From a virus: a DNA stretch of 64,000 bases. Positions 28,698 through 39,244 of this stretch are shown in pieces (the first letter of the stretch is position 1; each line of letters starts with the position of its first letter). The position numbers and the translations under genes are program-made. The stretch spans positions 1 through 64,000 of the IMG/VR virus record IMGVR_UViG_3300025133_000049; one strand, written 5' to 3'. The notes beneath the pieces were generated by a model, which ran no database searches, was not told the DNA's origin, and saw only the letters and a list, made by a program, of their open reading frames with translations.

Positions 28698-28910
28698 TTA
28701 ATTTTTATTTCTTCCATCTTTGTTGTTTTTAAATGGACTAAGCCCTATTCGTACAAATTTTCCGCCTTTACACCCAGGAAAGCCTGTGTATTCTACAGAG
28801 CTAACGGTTCCCCATATTTTAGTACCGTCAGGTTTCCAAAAGAACATCTTGTTGGTTAAATCTGGACATCCCATTTTTCTATACACTTCAGTACTAAATT
28901 TTCGTTTCAT
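28698..28910 (-). CDS. small basic hypothetical protein (70 aa)
   Basis: Shares a 20-bp leader with the upstream ORF. Confidence 0.6.
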   Translation of the reverse strand: MKRKFSTEVYRKMGCPDLTNKMFFWKPDGTKIWGTVSSVEYTGFPGCKGGKFVRIGLSPFKNNKDGRNKN

Positions 28911-29067
28911 CTCTATTGTTTTTGGTTATTCAATCCATTCAATGTGATTCCATAAATAAATCAGCAATCTGCCAATCCAATATAAAGCAAAGGCTAATGC
29001 CATGCCTATAATTATAAACCACGAGGCTAAACCTCTTTCACCGTTTGTCATCTCTATTGTTTTTGGT
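28908..29067. repeat. 20-bp direct repeat spanning two consecutive start codons, enclosing a ~41-aa membrane ORF
   Basis: TCATCTCTATTGTTTTTGGT at ~28907 and ~29048; enclosed ORF is MTNGERGLASWFIIIGMALAFALYWIGRLLIYLWNHIEWIE. Confidence 0.75.
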
Positions 29068-29121
29068 GGTTCTATTATCATAATTCATAATTTTATTTTT
29101 AAAATGTTTAATAATCCGTAC

Positions 29122-29181
29122 TGTTTACAACAAAGTGTATAGCACATTAAAACGATGCCATACACAAACCGTTAGCAAACA
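29122..29181 (+). mobile_element. attC-like recombination site (left)
   Basis: AAC (29129-31)-N6-TAT...ATA-N8-GTT (29171-73); inner stem GTGTATAGCA/TGCCATACAC. Confidence 0.7.
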
Positions 29182-29497
29182 TTACTTAGTCTGCTCTATT
29201 GCTTCAGAAATTATTGTCTGCCAACCTTTACTTAACGATGCAACACATCTAAGTTCTTGACTTTCTGATAGTTTGAATCCGTCAGTATTAATAATTTCTA
29301 CTACTGTTGTATAATGGTAAACTGTATCGTGATGTTCTAATGGCTCATCATTAATATTATCCCATAAAATAAAATCTTCTTTACTAATATTTTTCATTTT
29401 AAAACGATTTGCTAACACAACCTATACACCATAAAGCGTGATATTGAAGTGTTAAGATTAAACATTGTACTACGCTTTACGGTGCATAGCCAAACTG
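29172..29497. mobile_element. integron-type gene cassette (326 bp, G|TT to G|TT)
   Basis: Cassette start (G)TTAGCAAA is the perfect complement of TTTGCTAAC at the start of its own attC; contains a single promoterless ORF. Confidence 0.65.
29182..29397 (-). CDS. cassette-borne hypothetical protein (71 aa)
   Basis: ATG 29397 (MKNISKEDF...); the track's extension to 29418 runs into the attC-like site; stop abuts the left site. Confidence 0.7.
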   Translation of the reverse strand: MKNISKEDFILWDNINDEPLEHHDTVYHYTTVVEIINTDGFKLSESQELRCVASLSKGWQTIISEAIEQTK

Positions 29498-29503
29498 TTA
29501 TAA
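29408..29503 (+). mobile_element. attC-like recombination site (right)
   Basis: AAC (29414-16)-N6-TAT...ATA-N8-GTT (29497-99); 18-bp stem CTATACACCATAAAGCGT/ACGCTTTACGGTGCATAG. Confidence 0.7.
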
Positions 29504-29510
29504 TTCATAC

Positions 29511-29708
29511 CTATTGTTTTTTGGTTACTGTTCCTTTTACTGGATCCAGAATAAAACCATCTGCATCGGCATTCATCGATAGTTTTGTCATTTCTTGTTG
29601 AGCTGCATTGAATTTATCCACAATTGCAGTCATTTTGTGGAGGTATTTCTCACCGAGTTCTTCTCGCTTTAATACCCAAGTATTGTCTTTTCTATGAACT
29701 ATTTCCAT
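29511..29708 (-). CDS. hypothetical protein (65 aa)
   Basis: ACAC-ATG leader. Confidence 0.7.
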   Translation of the reverse strand: MEIVHRKDNTWVLKREELGEKYLHKMTAIVDKFNAAQQEMTKLSMNADADGFILDPVKGTVTKKQ

Positions 29709-29721
29709 GTGTTTATTTAAA

Positions 29722-29940
29722 TTAAAGTATACACCTCGACTTGTGAGGGTTCATCTATGAGCAGCGACCCGTTATTCCTTCTTACTTGCTGATTTTGACG
29801 AGGTGGTATACTTAATCGGATCCGTCACGGCTCAATCCGAAGATGGCTGGTAGATCCTACATTGCAATGATATTGTTATACTGTATTTAACTGGTACCAG
29901 CTTACTCACGCATTATGCTTTCGGCTGGATTTACCCCTTA
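29722..29940 (-). ncRNA. candidate structured RNA (~220 nt)
   Basis: Several GC-rich stems in an ORF-free gap; internal loop with AGUA opposite GAA on the - strand. Confidence 0.5.
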
Positions 29941-29951
29941 ACAATATTATT

Positions 29952-30266
29952 TTATTTGTCTAACGATCTAAAGTATCTGATTGATGAGTGTAAATTATTC
30001 TGGTCTTGTAATATACTTATTACTTGAGCAATTGTAAATTTATGACCCATTTCTTCAGTAATTGTCTTAGCTATTGCTACTCCAAACTCTCTTTTATATT
30101 TCTCTGCTTCTTGAAAATTAATATCTCCATCGAGCTTCCGGTAATTATCTTGTATAGCTGACCAGTTGGACAACTTAAGAATATCTCTACCGGAACCATC
30201 GATGAATGTATTACTGTATGAATCAAAGATGAGTTCTTTCTTGATTGTATCCTTGATTATGCTCAT
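29952..30266 (-). CDS. hypothetical protein (104 aa)
   Basis: Co-directional early-cluster ORF. Confidence 0.7.
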   Translation of the reverse strand: MSIIKDTIKKELIFDSYSNTFIDGSGRDILKLSNWSAIQDNYRKLDGDINFQEAEKYKREFGVAIAKTITEEMGHKFTIAQVISILQDQNNLHSSIRYFRSLDK

Positions 30267-30267
30267 A

Positions 30268-30555
30268 CTATGAAATTATAAATAAGTAACCGGCTATAAA
30301 TGTAATACAAATTGAATACAATACAGCTACAGCTAGTTTATTTGTTGTAGATTTCACCTTTGCTTTATGATGATCAAGTGAATATTTATTCTGAGATGCT
30401 TTTTGTCTTAGGTCGTTGTTTTGTTTTTCTAAACCTTCACTATAGGACCTTAAACTAGAGGAATATACTTCTAATCTATCTCTATCCGTGCGTAACTGGG
30501 ATGCATAATTAAATAAATCTTTCTTTAATAATTTTTTCATTTCTGATGGTGTCAT
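30268..30555 (-). CDS. coiled-coil protein with C-terminal transmembrane anchor
   Basis: Hydrophobic C-terminus LAVAVLYSICITFIAGYLFII. Confidence 0.7.
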   Translation of the reverse strand: MTPSEMKKLLKKDLFNYASQLRTDRDRLEVYSSSLRSYSEGLEKQNNDLRQKASQNKYSLDHHKAKVKSTTNKLAVAVLYSICITFIAGYLFIIS

Positions 30556-30573
30556 ATCTTTAATTTTAGGTTA

Positions 30574-31005
30574 TTATTCTTGTTCTCTTCTTGCATCGTA
30601 ATCCAGGTCAAAATCATGTCCGTCAGGATACAAATTTTTATCTGGTAAATGAGTGAACCTAGTTGGTTTAAATACACCCAAATCTACTCTAGTATCACTA
30701 ACATCCTCATCAAATGGACAGCCTTGTACAGGCCTGTTCTTATCAATATCAAAGTCAGATCCTTTAGGTTTTTCTTTACCTAACCCTATTTTTAGATGCA
30801 TTGGTTTAATTATATATACTGCATATCTAGCTAATCCTAGAACTGCTGCAGGTATTAGTAAGAAACATACTATTGCATACAATACTATCTTTAACCCTAA
30901 CATACTATCTAGGGTTATGGCTCCGATCAGTAATCCAATACATACTGAGTTCATTATAACTATGAATGCATAGTCTTTCGCGTATTCTTTATAATCTTTT
31001 TTCAT
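30574..31005 (-). CDS. membrane protein (2 TM) with acidic tail
   Basis: Two hydrophobic segments at the N-terminus. Confidence 0.7.
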   Translation of the reverse strand: MKKDYKEYAKDYAFIVIMNSVCIGLLIGAITLDSMLGLKIVLYAIVCFLLIPAAVLGLARYAVYIIKPMHLKIGLGKEKPKGSDFDIDKNRPVQGCPFDEDVSDTRVDLGVFKPTRFTHLPDKNLYPDGHDFDLDYDARREQE

Positions 31006-31007
31006 AA

Positions 31008-31139
31008 TTATACATTTATAGCCATCATAGGCATGGTTAATTTTCTATATCTATTGTAATACTTTGACCATCCTGCTCCATATACTTCTTTATACTTTGC
31101 AATATTACGGTCCTCTTTGTTAATCATTCGTGGTCTCAT
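31008..31139 (-). CDS. small basic protein (43 aa), not in ORF track
   Basis: MRPRMINKEDRNIAKYKEVYGAGWSKYY...; ACACAC-ATG leader. Confidence 0.55.
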   Translation of the reverse strand: MRPRMINKEDRNIAKYKEVYGAGWSKYYNRYRKLTMPMMAINV

Positions 31140-31234
31140 GTGTGTTTTTTTAATTATTTAATATTTATTGTGTAATCTAATCCGGTTCAGTAGCCATAGT
31201 GCGAAACATATGACTACTGTTATTAAAAATATAT

Positions 31235-31390
31235 TTATTGCTCCCATATTCTTGTGTTATTTACTTTAGAATGTGTTTCTAATGCCTCTATTCTATTTGT
31301 TATTTCATCATAGATTTCATCAGCATCGTAATGTAAATCCTTTTCAGCACTCTCTTCGAGCCATGCTGCTAGTTTCTTTAGTTCGTCCAT
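31235..31390 (-). CDS. small acidic helical protein (51 aa), not in ORF track
   Basis: MDELKKLAAWLEESAEKD...; TAATG-coupled. Confidence 0.55.
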   Translation of the reverse strand: MDELKKLAAWLEESAEKDLHYDADEIYDEITNRIEALETHSKVNNTRIWEQ

Positions 31391-31665
31391 TATTTTTGAA
31401 GTGTTGTTACGATTAAATATTGTTCAGATAGTTTAGCAAGAGCTTTAAGTTCATTAATACTAAATCTAGCATCCTCAGATGCATATAATAATGTATTACC
31501 ATCATCAATAACTTTGACGTATCCTTCAGTTCTTAATACTTTCATTGATCCAGAGTATGAATCAGTTGTTTCAGTGTTCCAAACTGCAAATGCTAGTGAT
31601 ATAATTAGTATAATACCTAGTATTGTACTAAAGTGATCAAATATAAATTGTTTAAATGTTTTCAT
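31390..31665 (-). CDS. single-pass membrane protein (91 aa)
   Basis: N-terminal TM segment; TAATG-coupled. Confidence 0.7.
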   Translation of the reverse strand: MKTFKQFIFDHFSTILGIILIISLAFAVWNTETTDSYSGSMKVLRTEGYVKVIDDGNTLLYASEDARFSINELKALAKLSEQYLIVTTLQK

Positions 31666-31874
31666 TATCCTAATCTTATGTTGTTAATACTATTAATTGT
31701 TAAGTGTTCTGCTAATCTTGTTGTGTATATTTTACAGCTCACTGTATTGTTAGCCTTTTCAGGTGTCCAAGTTCTAATGTGTTCAGTTATATCTTCGAAT
31801 GAACTAAATGTTTGTTCATCCGTAATAATAAGATTTGCAGGTGTTTGCCATTTATGTATGAGTAAATACTCCAT
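31665..31874 (-). CDS. hypothetical protein (69 aa)
   Basis: Coupled ORF. Confidence 0.65.
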   Translation of the reverse strand: MEYLLIHKWQTPANLIITDEQTFSSFEDITEHIRTWTPEKANNTVSCKIYTTRLAEHLTINSINNIRLG

Positions 31875-31877
31875 AGT

Positions 31878-32153
31878 TTAACGTGTTATTTGTTCTATTG
31901 AAACTGTTTCCTCATTAAATAGTACTCCATCTTCATTATTATATGACCAAGTGACAGCATAACCTTTATGAATAAAGAAGCCAACATATCTAGTTAACCT
32001 ACGTGTAGGATAATTATCATGATTACTATATTCCCAGGCTTTTGTTTTTTGTTCTGGTGTTTGATTTGGTACTAATAATGCTTTAATTTCAACCACTGCA
32101 TCCTCATCTTGAGGAGCAGTAGTTTTGTTTAGTTCTTCTGTAAGTTTTCTCAT
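31878..32153 (-). CDS. hypothetical protein (91 aa)
   Basis: ACACACAA-ATG leader. Confidence 0.7.
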   Translation of the reverse strand: MRKLTEELNKTTAPQDEDAVVEIKALLVPNQTPEQKTKAWEYSNHDNYPTRRLTRYVGFFIHKGYAVTWSYNNEDGVLFNEETVSIEQITR

Positions 32154-32684: not shown

Positions 32685-33200
32685 ATAACCTAGGTTAATG
32701 TGTGAGCACAACAGTCGCAACTGCCTAGGGTTTACATATTTTAAAAACTCTTCAGCTTTCATGCAGGACTGCTCTGTGTTTGTTTATCTTCAAGCTGAAG
32801 AGTTAAAAGGTAAAGCCCACAACACGCCAAACAGTTGTGGTAGTACTTGGATAATGGTATTGCCTGCTCGATTACCATTGTTTAATACCTGCGTATACAT
32901 AGCAGTCCGAGGTATCCTATTTGAGTACTATTGAGTGATTTAGGCCTACTCAAGCTTTATAGTATTTTACAGTAATACTATACTGTGTGAGTTAGCTAGG
33001 ACTCTTAGAACCACATAATGGTCTTATTTGAATGCCTTTATATGCTTGGCCTAGCTATTAGTTCTCCAGGTGTTATTTAGTTGTCAATCTGCAGTGAGCT
33101 ATATATCATGAGGTGCTATGCTCTTGAGTCTATTACCTGAGAGTTGTGAGTGTTTGTATGATCTTAATTCATGGGCGATAACACTCTAACCCTTACGTGC
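32685..33200 (-). ncRNA. candidate large structured RNA (~515 nt) with kissing-loop
   Basis: At least eight stems of 6-13 bp and an 8-nt loop-loop complementarity; no - strand ORF. Strand assigned from context only. Confidence 0.55.
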
Positions 33201-33203
33201 AAT

Positions 33204-34315: not shown

Positions 34316-34334
34316 TGTGTGTGATTTAATGTTA

Positions 34335-34815
34335 TATTAATAAGACAAGGTAGGCTAGCCTCTGTATACCTAAAACATCGGACGGACTAGCTCTATTAAA
34401 CCTTATCTTGTATTAATGTAATGCTAACTTACGTGCTAGTCAATTAGGCTTACGGTTCATTACCGGATTACAAGCATTACATTATGTACTCTGTTACTGT
34501 TATTAAATATTAATTAACCATAACCTCCGTAAAGGTATCATTCACTCTAAGTAGTATATTCCAAGTCATCATGTGACAAGTTAGATAGTTGGTTGGTGTA
34601 TTCCGCACCTACTCTTAGTGTTAATTAATGTACTTCTGTTATGTATGGTCAAAGTGTACCATGTATTGTTTATGTAATATAAATGAGGCTAAACTAGTGC
34701 TAGCGTACTATCACTAATATGCCTAATATGTGGGTGAGGTGACTGTCACCCTTCCTCCATCTCACTTATCGTACTAATGAGTTAGGCCTGTCGTACTAGG
34801 CTGTTTGGCCTAAAC
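34335..34815 (-). ncRNA. candidate structured leader/ncRNA (~480 nt) with repeated UAGUACG loops
   Basis: Consecutive multi-branched stems; G-U wobbles in the 34335-34418 stem favour the - strand; ORF-free. Confidence 0.55.
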
Positions 34816-34818
34816 AAT

Positions 34819-34836
34819 AAAGGGTCCGAAGACCCT
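34819..34836 (-). terminator. cUUCGg hairpin after the first early gene
   Basis: - strand AGGGTC-TTCG-GACCCT-TTATT. Confidence 0.7.
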
Positions 34837-34841
34837 AATTG

Positions 34842-37129: not shown

Positions 37130-37729
37130 ATGGACATCCTACAAAACAAGACAGTCGTGATCCCTATACAAGCTGGATCAGGAGAACTGCTCAAGACTTA
37201 CTTGAGGATATTTCTCGCGAAGATACGACTAACAGAAAATCAATTAGATGTCGCAAGTGCTTTAATCCCTAGATACGCTCAGTATGTAAATGATGGGGTA
37301 AGAGAACCTTACGCATCAACCTTATTATTCTCTACCAAAAACAGAAAAGATATAGCTAAGGAGCTTAAAATATCACAGGCCCATATGAACAATACGTTCT
37401 CAGCCCTGTTGGATAAAGGTATCCTAGCTAAAAATACAGATATTGGATACATGTTAGATCCGGGATTAGTCCCATGTAATGAACTTATATTTAGGTTCTC
37501 AACAGAAGAGTATGAAAAACAAAGACAAGATACTCCGAGAAGTGTCGAAGAAGTTGAACCTACCCCTGAACCAAGTAGAGCAAGTAGTATTGAGCCAACT
37601 GAACCTGGCGCGTACAACAATGATGAACAAAACACAGAAGACAGTGTATCTGAGGAAAGTGGGTTATTGGATACCGACATCGATCAAGAAGAATCTTTAC
37701 GCCCAAAGATCACAGACCATTATGAATAA
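37130..37729 (+). CDS. winged-helix DNA-binding protein (RepL-like) with acidic overprinted tail
   Basis: RKDIAKELKISQAHMNNTFSALLDKGIL...YMLDP wHTH pattern. Confidence 0.65.
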   Translation: MDILQNKTVVIPIQAGSGELLKTYLRIFLAKIRLTENQLDVASALIPRYAQYVNDGVREPYASTLLFSTKNRKDIAKELKISQAHMNNTFSALLDKGILAKNTDIGYMLDPGLVPCNELIFRFSTEEYEKQRQDTPRSVEEVEPTPEPSRASSIEPTEPGAYNNDEQNTEDSVSEESGLLDTDIDQEESLRPKITDHYE

Positions 37730-37775
37730 CAAACAACAATCAATTATAAACGAGGATGATCCTCTAGAATTTTAA
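37512..37775 (+). CDS. IHF/HU-like DNA-binding protein (87 aa)
   Basis: KILREVSKKLNLPLNQVEQVV...TVYLRKVGYW HU-fold pattern; ATG 37512. Confidence 0.65.
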   Translation: MKNKDKILREVSKKLNLPLNQVEQVVLSQLNLARTTMMNKTQKTVYLRKVGYWIPTSIKKNLYAQRSQTIMNNKQQSIINEDDPLEF

Positions 37776-37778
37776 ATT

Positions 37779-38531
37779 ATGAGTAAAGAAGCTAAATTAG
37801 TATTTGACATTACAAGTTTACCTACAGGATTATCACCAGCAGACTTTGTAAGAATGTATGACCAACATGGGCTGGTGTTTTGGGATAGTGAGAAAAACGG
37901 CATTAAACCCAAACTGTTCACAGGACCTGACCCATCAAAAGGAGAAGAAACAATTATTGTAGATACCAAAGGGAAAGAACTTGATCTAGAAACTTTCAAT
38001 AAAGAGTTCGTTGACCACGAGAAGTGGGATAAGGAATTACACTACTGTTTAAATTCAGCGGTTTATTATTGGAATAATTATGGATCCCCTGCTTACCCGG
38101 TCACTAGAGATAGTGAAGCAGCCTTCCTAAAGTCTCTCAATCTTTCAGACCTGTCCGATGTGAAGGACTCTGATGATGCGGCGAAACTTTGGGAAGCTCA
38201 GAAGGGTAAGGTAAAAGAAGCTCTAAAGCATGTAAACAAAGAACATCTTCAAGAAAGAGCTGTGGTTATGGAAGCTATGAAAGGAGCTTATTATGAAGAG
38301 GTGACTAAGATTGAAAAGGTTCTAGCTGATAAGGTAAAACTTCATGATAAGAATGGAGATAAGCTTATTGAAATTGAAGCTATCCAAAATATTGTAGGGA
38401 AAATTAAAACAGTTTCCCCTATCCCAGAGGAATACAGTAAGTATAGAAATAGAAAAATGAAGTGGGATCACCATATGTTAATAGCTACTGATTATGCAGT
38501 TCTATTAAATATAGCTTATAAATTACTTTAA
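37779..38531 (+). CDS. hypothetical protein (250 aa)
   Basis: Co-directional ORF in the packaging operon. Confidence 0.8.
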   Translation: MSKEAKLVFDITSLPTGLSPADFVRMYDQHGLVFWDSEKNGIKPKLFTGPDPSKGEETIIVDTKGKELDLETFNKEFVDHEKWDKELHYCLNSAVYYWNNYGSPAYPVTRDSEAAFLKSLNLSDLSDVKDSDDAAKLWEAQKGKVKEALKHVNKEHLQERAVVMEAMKGAYYEEVTKIEKVLADKVKLHDKNGDKLIEIEAIQNIVGKIKTVSPIPEEYSKYRNRKMKWDHHMLIATDYAVLLNIAYKLL

Positions 38532-38551
38532 TATGGTGGTAGTAAAAATTC

Positions 38552-38587
38552 AAACAGGTATGGATATCTTAGGTATCCAGCCTGTTT
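38552..38587 (+). terminator. intergenic hairpin / possible terminator
   Basis: AAACAGG..TGGATATC/GGTATCCA..CCTGTTT. Confidence 0.5.
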
Positions 38588-38605
38588 ATGTAACACATTA
38601 TTTGT

Positions 38606-39244
38606 ATGAGCATTCAACGACATCCGGTAGATAGCTATGATAAAAAGCTAAATTTTTGGGAGGAATTTCCTGACTATAAAGTTCACCGACAATTCGGCGA
38701 CTTCTGGAGGAACAATAAAAAGGCAGGCCAATTACAAAATAGTTCACTATTTATGTGGGCTTTGTCTTTGTGCTATGATAGGAAGAGTGTATTTTTTGCT
38801 CAACCGGAATTAGATAAATGGGAAGTTGTAGGAGAAGACCTCTTTCAGGATTCAAAATTTCTTCGTAAATTAGCCGAGGATCCAGAAAGTGCTGAACTGG
38901 TATTTGTACCAGGCGGGCACATAAGGGATCTAGTGTTAGCTTTCGAGGAAACAATTGATACTCCTCTTGGGATTTCGTTACGTAATATGGAGAGGAAGTT
39001 TGCAGAAAGAACTAAGTTCATGATGGAAACAGATTATTCCATGGACTATTATGAAACTTCTGAGCAAGGTCGTAAGTTCTTGGTTAAAGGGACAGCGGAT
39101 CAATTGGACAAGATGTTTGTTAACACAGATAAAATAGATAATTTATTAACTAAAGCTCTAGACGCATTACGCGCGGCTGAAGGATCTGGTACTGCTAAAG
39201 GTGGCGCTCAAGAAAGTTTAGCAGACGGAGACGCTGATTTCTAA
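38606..39244 (+). CDS. conserved protein upstream of TerL (candidate terminase small subunit)
   Basis: TAATG-coupled to terL; helical; ends AKGG.QES. Function inferred from position. Confidence 0.5.
   Translation: MSIQRHPVDSYDKKLNFWEEFPDYKVHRQFGDFWRNNKKAGQLQNSSLFMWALSLCYDRKSVFFAQPELDKWEVVGEDLFQDSKFLRKLAEDPESAELVFVPGGHIRDLVLAFEETIDTPLGISLRNMERKFAERTKFMMETDYSMDYYETSEQGRKFLVKGTADQLDKMFVNTDKIDNLLTKALDALRAAEGSGTAKGGAQESLADGDADF

Follow-up and report, generated by a model that had tools for sequence, protein, structure and literature searches.

The first 64 kb of the viral record IMGVR_UViG_3300025133_000049 (hereafter the window, 64,000 nucleotides) raises the question of how one small gene came to lie between two folded, integron-like sites in a phage genome. 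Integrons are viewed as devices of bacteria, and mosaicism in phages is usually ascribed to illegitimate or homologous recombination. Integron cassettes recombine at folded single-stranded attC sites, the bottom strand of which is cleaved at AA↓C (↓ marks the crossover). The record measures 94,787 bp with 36% G+C, and its major capsid protein is ∼40% identical to the counterparts in crAss-like phages; the source phage is a marine crAss-like phage. An earlier interpretation made from the letters alone (the sequence-only reading) had described two palindromic sites with exact 9-bp arms on either side of an open reading frame (ORF), and all its coordinates were confirmed. Two strand-specific hairpin sites (29123-29179 and 29408-29505, separated by 238 nt) bracket an ORF of 71 amino acids (aa), and the 9-bp arms GTTAGCAAA/TTTGCTAAC are exactly complementary. 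Both the sites with their family and the cassette with its boundaries are real. Integron-like, recombinase-mediated exchange at folded sites of the coding strand, acting here in trans, is the most likely mechanism, with a probability of roughly 0.6.

The coding strand of the locus is the - strand, and the elements are given in the order of that strand (Table 1). Both sites were found to fold preferentially on the - strand, as had been proposed. As single-stranded DNA, site 1 reached -9.3 kcal/mol (z = -3.3) on the - strand vs. -6.1 kcal/mol (z = -1.5) on the + strand, and site 2 reached -14.8 kcal/mol (z = -3.6) vs. -10.0 kcal/mol (z = -1.4), with one G.T pair in site 1 and two in site 2. Folding of the two intergenic regions as RNA gave -24.4 vs. 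-17.0 and -33.7 vs. -26.5 for the - and + strands, respectively. The strand selectivity that characterizes attC sites of integrons is present at both sites. The identical geometry claimed for the two sites held only in part: both end in AAC/GTT and carry the literal pattern AAC-N6-TAT...ATA-N8-GTT, whereas site 2 has spacers of 7/5 nt and site 1 of 5/3 nt, and the depth of the TAT/ATA triplets differs between the two stems, the likeness being partly coincidental. A scan of the 94.8-kb genome with this pattern gave eight stretches, and a hairpin is enclosed only by the two sites already described. No significant 9-mer enrichment was seen in the window (28 near-matches vs. 22.8 expected). The genome has 19 GTT-led 9-bp inverted pairs, and its AT-rich background dominates 9-bp inverted pairs overall, with only a 2-fold excess of GTT...AAC over AAC...GTT. 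The 9-bp inverted repeat by itself is within chance for an AT-rich genome; it gains significance because it adjoins hairpins and recurs in other genomes. A scan of the region against Rfam, which lacks an attC model, gave no match. In a check for intrinsic terminators and promoters, neither hairpin fitted a simple terminator and no promoter excess was seen; the terminator check having given no call, an assignment of the hairpins as simple intrinsic terminators was rejected, as were IS200/IS605-type ends, since stem, loop, and length are not the same in the two hairpins.

Table 1. Coordinates of the cassette locus and of related features (window positions unless a locus is named).
Feature	Position	Strand	Remark
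Left outer box, R''-type, AATTATAAC	29505-29497	-	Predicted crossover right after AAC (29497)
Inferred mobile cassette, 326 bp: hairpin 2, GTTAGCAAA, leader, ORF, TTTGCTAAC	29171-29496	-	
Hairpin 2 plus spacers (AGTTTGG 5', GTTGT 3')	29417-29496	-	Cassette's own folded site
Hairpin 2 arms, 18 bp, 2 G.T pairs, 32-nt loop	29489-29472 and 29439-29422	-	Located by repeat search
R'-type box GTTAGCAAA	29416-29408	-	Exact complement of 29171-29179
Leader TCGTTTTAAA plus ORF	29182-29407	-	ATG 29397, TAA 29184-29182
Tail TGTTTGCTAAC: TG plus R''-type box TTTGCTAAC (29179-29171)	29171-29181	-	End of mobile unit; predicted crossover after AAC (29171)
Hairpin 1 site: spacer GGTTT, hairpin, spacer TTT, R'-type box GTTGTAAAC (29131-29123)	29123-29170	-	
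Hairpin 1 arms, 10 bp, 1 G.T pair, loop TCGTTTTAATG	29165-29156 and 29144-29135	-	
ORFs within inner-stem-type repeats	L099:2446-2577 (-), L118:2312-2443, L027:1729-1911		
Methyltransferase/Mom cargo examples	L109, L151, L167 (P12002L 29248-32126, 37305-38816)		
Copies of the pre-start sequence	28910-28927, 29052-29070, 29510-29530	-	

The boundaries of the cassette were delineated by blastn comparison of the window with ∼50 loci encoding the 71-aa ORF. The sole DNA shared with the window is 29501-29171 in locus L017 (98.8% identity) and 29500-29170 in locus L018 (96.7% identity), with unrelated flanks in both. This common block consists of hairpin 2, the leader, the ORF, and the tail, and is within 1 nt of the excisable cassette 29172-29497 of the sequence-only reading, the interval in Table 1 being offset from it by the 1-nt ambiguity of G↓TT vs. 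↓GTT. In L018, a different upstream gene ends in TAATGTTTGCTAAC directly 5' of hairpin 2, and the full site is contiguous, forming a two-tier hairpin with a 10-bp outer stem (-18.1 kcal/mol). A third locus, L027, carries the hairpin 2/ORF unit at 87% identity, followed by a hairpin with the hairpin-1 loop but a different, compensated stem. Homology with these three loci begins at or just ahead of the AAC of the left outer box, and this box appears from its sequence to be the remnant of a resident or upstream site. Most loci encoding the 71-aa ORF have only 29397-29171 in common with the window, i.e., the ORF and its 11-nt tail, which also recurs behind other genes, and in at least 10 further unrelated contexts homology stops at 29171, at the same AAC↓. 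The ends of homology in these comparisons (29171 and 29497-29501) agree with the G↓TT crossover of integrons (restated in Qi et al., 2023; PMC9892861), AA↓C on the folded strand; the breaks at AAC↓ on the coding strand correspond to ↓GTT on the + strand, where the sequence-only reading had placed them.

The cargo ORF (29397-29182, - strand) belongs to a family of 44 protein clusters with a length of 70-71 aa and 14 invariant residues and is, on account of this conservation, a genuine gene carried by the cassette. Pfam and PHROG searches with this ORF and its neighbors gave no match. The tail ATGTTTGCTAAC was considered as the start of a conserved downstream ORF and rejected, as the frames stop after 9-12 codons and are unconserved.

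The same slot was found empty or filled with other genes elsewhere. Exact-pattern scans of IMG/VR identified GTTAGCAAATCGTTTTAA in 79 contigs and TGTTTGCTAACGGTTTG in 23. The box GTTAGCAAA and the following TCGTTTTAA form an 18-mer present in 79 viral contigs, and in ∼60 contigs the two sides of the slot adjoin each other directly, forming a 29-nt hairpin, GTTAGCAAA-TCGTTTTAATG-TTTGCTAAC, which represents the empty slot. Additional loci were retrieved without bias via the 5' arm of hairpin 2, and at least nine unrelated ORFs other than the 71-aa ORF were seen to occupy the GTTAGCAAA...TTTGCTAAC slot downstream of hairpin 2, in line with the alternative cassettes that had been anticipated. These include ORFs of 43, 44, 68, 81, and 82 aa and three further ones, in which the box is followed by one to three nucleotides and then ATG; most of them terminate in TAA-TGTTTGCTAAC. 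The boxes behind hairpin 2 and behind the ORF covary as pairs across the ORF (GTTAGCAAA/TTTGCTAAC, GTTAGCATTA/TAATGCTAA, and GTTAGCAACA/TGTTGCTAAC), and in ∼20 other loci with hairpin 2 an xxAAC of varying sequence always lies 5' of the hairpin. The 29-nt empty cassette is single-copy and strand-specific per locus (e.g., L084:2428-2507 and L120:7672-7734; range L054-L157) and often precedes a second hairpin with the same loop, such hairpins occurring every ∼35 nt in L120. Two other assignments of the 29-nt palindrome were rejected: a classical 11-7-11 double-strand core site, as occupied junctions lack hybrid full sites, and a Bacteroidota TAnnTTTG promoter, for which the spacing is 1-2 nt off.

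The sites belong to a large family, as the sequence-only reading had expected. Besides Polaribacter phage P12002L, more than 100 other phage contigs contain homologous boxes, loops, and hairpins, and in more than 150 related loci ORFs lie between cassette-specific GTTxxxxxx...xxxxxxAAC repeats, with covarying hairpins between the units. The perfect repeats flanking the ORFs are 9-12 bp long and unit-specific (65 of at least 9 bp vs. 12 with shuffled flank partners), about half of them starting with GTT. One hairpin core is joined to differing left boxes across contigs, with homology opening immediately 3' of AAC; between loci L142 and L019 homology stops at GTTA, and isolated islands of homology between otherwise unrelated loci often start at TAAC↓G. 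In an alignment of 37 distinct hairpin-1-type (hp1-type) sites, AAC, GTT, and the loop are invariant in all 37. The inner stem is 85% paired with compensatory changes in 8 of 10 pairs, and its covariation score is 0.424, a value that none of 500 shuffled alignments (0.183) attained; with slid partners the score did not exceed 0.15. In linear arrays, pairing extends to only about half of the outer box positions, as expected if neighboring boxes belong to different units. Inner stems contain 25 G.T vs. 10 A.C oppositions on the coding strand. The bulged two-tier hairpin that defines attC sites by structure over sequence is present; two-tier folds were obtained for site 1, L018, and L058, and a bulged T occurs in some members. 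The outer boxes frequently deviate from RYYYAAC/GTTRRRY (TGCTAAC/GTTAGCA, TTATAAC/GTTGTAA), and some are canonical (CACCTAAC, GTTAGGT). A model built from the 37 hp1-type sites gave window site 1, itself a member of the training set, 75 bits on the - strand vs. 12.6 bits on the + strand; scanning the window with it revealed no further site, and hairpin 2, which differs in loop and length, was not recognized. In some loci, ORFs are enclosed by inner-stem-type repeats (GTATAACAGTA...TACTGTTATAC) instead of GTT/AAC boxes (Table 1), and therefore either tier of the hairpin can hold a gene in its loop.

Whether the cassette interrupts a resident site was addressed with loci that carry hairpin 1 between two other genes. 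In L058 and L074, hairpin 1 occurs with 97.7% identity to that of the window, in an uninterrupted site with the order TTGTTTATAAC, GCATT, hairpin, GTT, GTTGTAAAT, the outer boxes TTTATAAC/GTTGTAAA of which pair mutually with one G.T. Since these loci contain the uninterrupted site and the left junction of the window is AATTATAAC↓, the window can be read as a TTATAAC...GTTGTAA site split by the cassette right after AAC; the empty site TTACAAC/GTTATAA (+ strand) deduced by the sequence-only reading has its counterpart here. The hairpin 1 site, a member of the hp1 family, was either resident in the phage or came together with the cassette. Near and distant DNA searches and tblastn of the phage collection gave no relative of the locus, and the genes up- and downstream of the cassette have no useful relatives in IMG/VR that could provide a syntenic empty-site allele. 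No syntenic relative of the phage was found, and a split site and entry of the whole module by microhomology fit equally well. A 10-bp direct repeat, TATGAATTAT, at 29500-29509 and 29081-29090 encloses the entire two-site module of ∼410 bp; both copies open a mini-ORF (ATG AAT TAT), and the copy at 29500-29509 overlaps the left outer box.

A candidate enzyme is encoded in six related contigs (L065, L096, L104, L126, L147, and L149), where a tyrosine recombinase gene follows the last ...AAC box at a distance of 15-58 nt, the box being followed in all six by TA(G/C/T)TATAT. The recombinase of L104 is 279 aa long and matches PF00589 with E = 1.6e-38. The best NCBIfam matches are the XerA, XerD, and IntI models, each below its cut-off (TIGR02249, 165 bits vs. 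a cut-off of 265), and judged from these scores the enzyme is best described as Xer-like and not IntI. The candidate for the integron-like tyrosine recombinase that had been postulated thus comes from related contigs, is Xer-like, and has no counterpart in the source record. The gene is co-oriented with the cargo genes, and the conserved ...AAC↓TAGTATAT junction that directly precedes it in these contigs looks, by analogy, like an attI site. A junction of this kind in L017 is the exact position of the 71-aa cassette (GAGCATAAC↓cassette↓TAGTATATATAAAC), with no recombinase within 3 kb; this position would correspond to that at which an integron places its newest cassette.

These observations suggest that the region is one mobile gene cassette of an integron-like system endemic to Bacteroidota phages. 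The site would be a two-tier hairpin of the coding strand, with outer ...AAC/GTT... boxes, short unpaired spacers, and a variable, covarying inner stem, and the cassette would comprise one such hairpin with a GTTxxxxxx box, followed by a short leader, a single small ORF, and the xxxxxxAAC box that is complementary to the first box. On circularization, the two boxes are predicted to close the hairpin into a complete site, with TTTGCTAAC↓GGTTTGG as the junction of the 326-bp circle and AATTATAAC↓GGTTTGTGTATGG as the empty allele of the source phage. Strand exchange would take place right after AAC on the coding strand in its folded form, which corresponds to the bottom strand of an integron. Its layout, 5'-xxxAA↓C-spacer-hairpin-spacer-GTTxxx, is that of the integron bottom strand, and hence breaks at AAC↓ fit integron chemistry with the cargo inverted. 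The catalyst is most likely a tyrosine recombinase of the Xer/IntI superfamily encoded in some related phages. Since the source phage lacks a recombinase, its cassette would have been delivered in trans, e.g., during co-infection, and would lie either inside a resident hairpin-1 site or within a two-site fragment with which it arrived. From comparative data of this kind we infer catalysis, a single-stranded substrate, a circular intermediate, and the direction of the event. In a broader picture, for which the odds appear even, Bacteroidota phages have their own platform, consisting of the Xer-like recombinase, the attI-like AAC↓TAGTATAT junction, and coding-strand hairpins. At co-infection, single-gene cassettes (small ORFs, DNA methyltransferases, and Mom) would be moved by it in trans across lineages (crAss-like podoviruses, siphoviruses, and prophages), with recombinase-less genomes as recipients. 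The sites would also act as translation or RNA signals, and this second role would account for the inversion of the genes.

Several observations weigh against recombinase-mediated exchange. A search of the entire 94.8-kb record, with an estimated completeness of 65% (CheckV), for tyrosine recombinases (PF00589) gave no match, so that the absence of an integrase noted for the window extends to the full record; the recombinase was seen in just 6 of ∼100 loci, and none was found in two other cassette-bearing records. The conserved loops and variable stems are the opposite of what is seen in classical attC sites. For the 71-aa ORF, many contexts diverge at the ATG or at the stop codon instead of the site, and the circle, the empty-site allele, and the recombination event are all deduced from sequence. 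The direct repeat TATGAATTAT is a possible microhomology route of entry for the module and weakens the case for a split resident site. Qi et al. (2023; PMC9892861) described clusters of attC sites lacking integrase (CALINs) in virulent phages, including P12002L; the site P12002L_attC1, predicted by HattCI only, was the sole one of six tested sites for which IntI1 recombinants were not verified. According to the primer table of that study, it has the layout of window site 1 with an identical loop, TCGTTTTAATG, and lies between two methyltransferase genes. At least four further family sites occur in P12002L. The ORFs are inverted with respect to the integron convention, as the sequence-only reading had noticed, and lie on the folding strand, which is the mRNA-sense strand; a role at the RNA level predicts the same.

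Such a role is the chief alternative, unlikely though it is overall: the sites would be intercistronic elements of the early polycistronic mRNA (processing, stabilization, termination, or translation control), whose conservation channels ordinary or microhomology recombination in the manner of PeSL cassettes, without a dedicated recombinase. It is the sense strand that folds and there alone that G.U pairs are tolerated, and conserved loops (TCGTTTTAATG, with a TAATG stop/start overlap) on covarying stems resemble protein-bound RNA hairpins. Leaders and start codons lie inside loops, for which reason this explanation and integron-like exchange are not mutually exclusive. The scarcity of the recombinase among the contigs also suits it, and the PeSL elements, regulatory cassettes by which ORFans are shuffled and mini-circles arise, provide a precedent (PMC2839356). 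However, the left junctions have only ∼5 nt (xxAAC) in common with the donor, too short for homologous recombination, and more than 10 independent junctions fall at one nucleotide. The genome has just two such sites, hence they are not a general regulatory signal; the hairpins are not simple intrinsic terminators and no outstanding promoter accompanies them; and in six contigs the recombinase adjoins the conserved terminal junction.

Less probable still is a classical CALIN captured from a chromosomal integron of Bacteroidota and dependent on host IntI. CALINs have been reported in virulent phages, a Polaribacter phage among them, and IntI1 recombines several attC sites of phages (PMC9892861); a further resemblance to attC lies in the two-tier hairpin and its AAC/GTT boxes. 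Against such an origin, the site family spans more than 150 viral loci, the element of the empty slot was present in just 12 of ∼185,000 species-representative genomes, mostly in short contigs of Bacteroidota metagenome-assembled genomes, the neighboring recombinases are Xer-like and under the IntI thresholds, the ORFs have the inverted orientation, and IntI1 did not recombine P12002L_attC1. One of the bacterial occurrences is in the chromosome of Lutibacter holmesii CCUG 62221 (G001:C2:263217-263239), ∼10 kb from a weak integrase match; the locus is possibly a prophage and, being in a cultured flavobacterium, could serve as an experimental handle. Very improbable is ordinary mosaicism, by which unrelated terminator-like palindromes and a chance 9-bp repeat would surround an ORF moved by illegitimate recombination under selection for intact genes. 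The unenriched 9-mer, the frequency of chance 9-bp inverted pairs in an AT-rich genome, the many breaks precisely at ATG or stop codons, and the 10-bp direct repeat around the module are compatible with it. It is already largely refuted by the recurrence of boxes, loops, and hairpins with covariation in more than 100 contigs, by identical boundaries in unrelated contexts, by nine cargos in one slot, and by the enrichment of flanking repeats (65 vs. 12). Integron-like exchange is the interpretation of the sequence-only reading that is supported, the outcomes named there as capable of refuting it having come out opposite.

In comparison with known systems, the locus shares with integrons and CALINs the single-ORF units between folded imperfect palindromes with ...AAC/GTT... 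boxes, the two-tier stem with unpaired spacers, of which one strand folds better, the complementary core and inverse-core boxes around each ORF with exchange at AAC/GTT, and, in some contigs, arrays ending beside a tyrosine recombinase and a conserved junction. Like a CALIN, the array of the window lacks an integrase and has at least two nearby sites, provided that these are of the attC type. It differs from integrons in that no IntI-type integrase is encoded in cis in the 94.8-kb record and the enzyme of the related contigs is a 279-aa Xer-like protein below the IntI cut-offs, co-oriented with the cargo. The ORFs lie on the folding ("bottom") strand and not on the top strand, so that the hairpin traveling with an ORF is the upstream one; the loops are conserved, often with a start codon, and the outer boxes deviate from RYYYAAC/GTTRRRY. 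The spread is phage-borne and not through bacterial chromosomes, and the single member tested was not recombined by IntI1. The locus hence stands outside the classical integron family, with no IntI, inverted ORFs, and a box consensus partly followed, yet most likely works like an integron. The closest homology-driven analogue is the PeSL cassettes of T4-type phages (Arbiol et al., 2010, PMC2839356; Comeau et al., 2014, PMC4122927), in which conserved intergenic stem-loops likewise flank small ORFans in early or hyperplastic regions, with modular exchange and possible mini-circles of element and ORF. PeSL elements contain a sigma-70 promoter and a terminator, are present in many copies per genome, and recombine homologously within the element, whereas the present genome has two sites that lack the promoter/terminator signature, junctions at one nucleotide with ∼5 nt in common, and a dedicated recombinase in related contigs. 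The folded single-strand sites of Xer (CTX-phi attP) and the IS200/IS605/PATE elements are similar in having strand-specific imperfect hairpins as substrates and insertion that leaves no target duplication and lies beside a fixed short sequence. Here, a dif-like target is absent, and no Y1 HUH transposase is seen, although no search aimed at one was made; instead of matched left and right hairpin ends, one hairpin and a box pair are found, and the enzyme in the contigs related to the window is a tyrosine recombinase.

The - strand of the window carries genes from 1275 to ∼35500, and the cassette, the only one in the record, sits within a series of small - strand ORFs. Ahead of several tightly packed early genes, a pre-start sequence, ACCAAAAA(A)CAATAG(A/G)(G/T)ATG, is conserved on the - strand (Table 1) and is probably the phage's own translation-initiation context; the ORF listed at 28926-29081 probably has its true start at the ATG at 29051, giving 41 aa. 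For the crAss-like phage phi14:2, the early promoters lack any known motif. Intergenic islands of the early region at 29709-29951, 32879-33203, and 34316-34841 are long, devoid of ORFs, and strongly structured (RNAfold, -50 to -122 kcal/mol) and bear no relation to the sites of the cassette. At 31140-31234 (- strand), TAATAAC leads directly into a 10-bp hairpin that contains a G.T pair, behind which lies CCGGATTAG; with its AAC, hairpin, and the downstream ACGGATT motif of related loci, this element resembles a decayed member of the site family. The cargo of related arrays often consists of Mom-like proteins and DNA methyltransferases, N6_N4_Mtase occurring in 14 loci with a maximum of four in one locus (Table 1), and the system seems to traffic anti-restriction genes.

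Integron-like gene shuffling in Bacteroidota phages is barely touched by the literature. If the proposed exchange is true, it would provide a concrete mechanism for the quick turnover of small early genes and anti-defense genes, methyltransferases and Mom being frequent neighbors, and the exchange would span distant phage families, crAss-like phages included. Its components (recombinase, hairpin site, attI-like junction, and empty cassette) are open to experiment. The published attC sites of virulent phages would be recast as part of a system that belongs to phages and has an enzyme of its own, and such an enzyme would explain the failure of one of these sites with IntI1.

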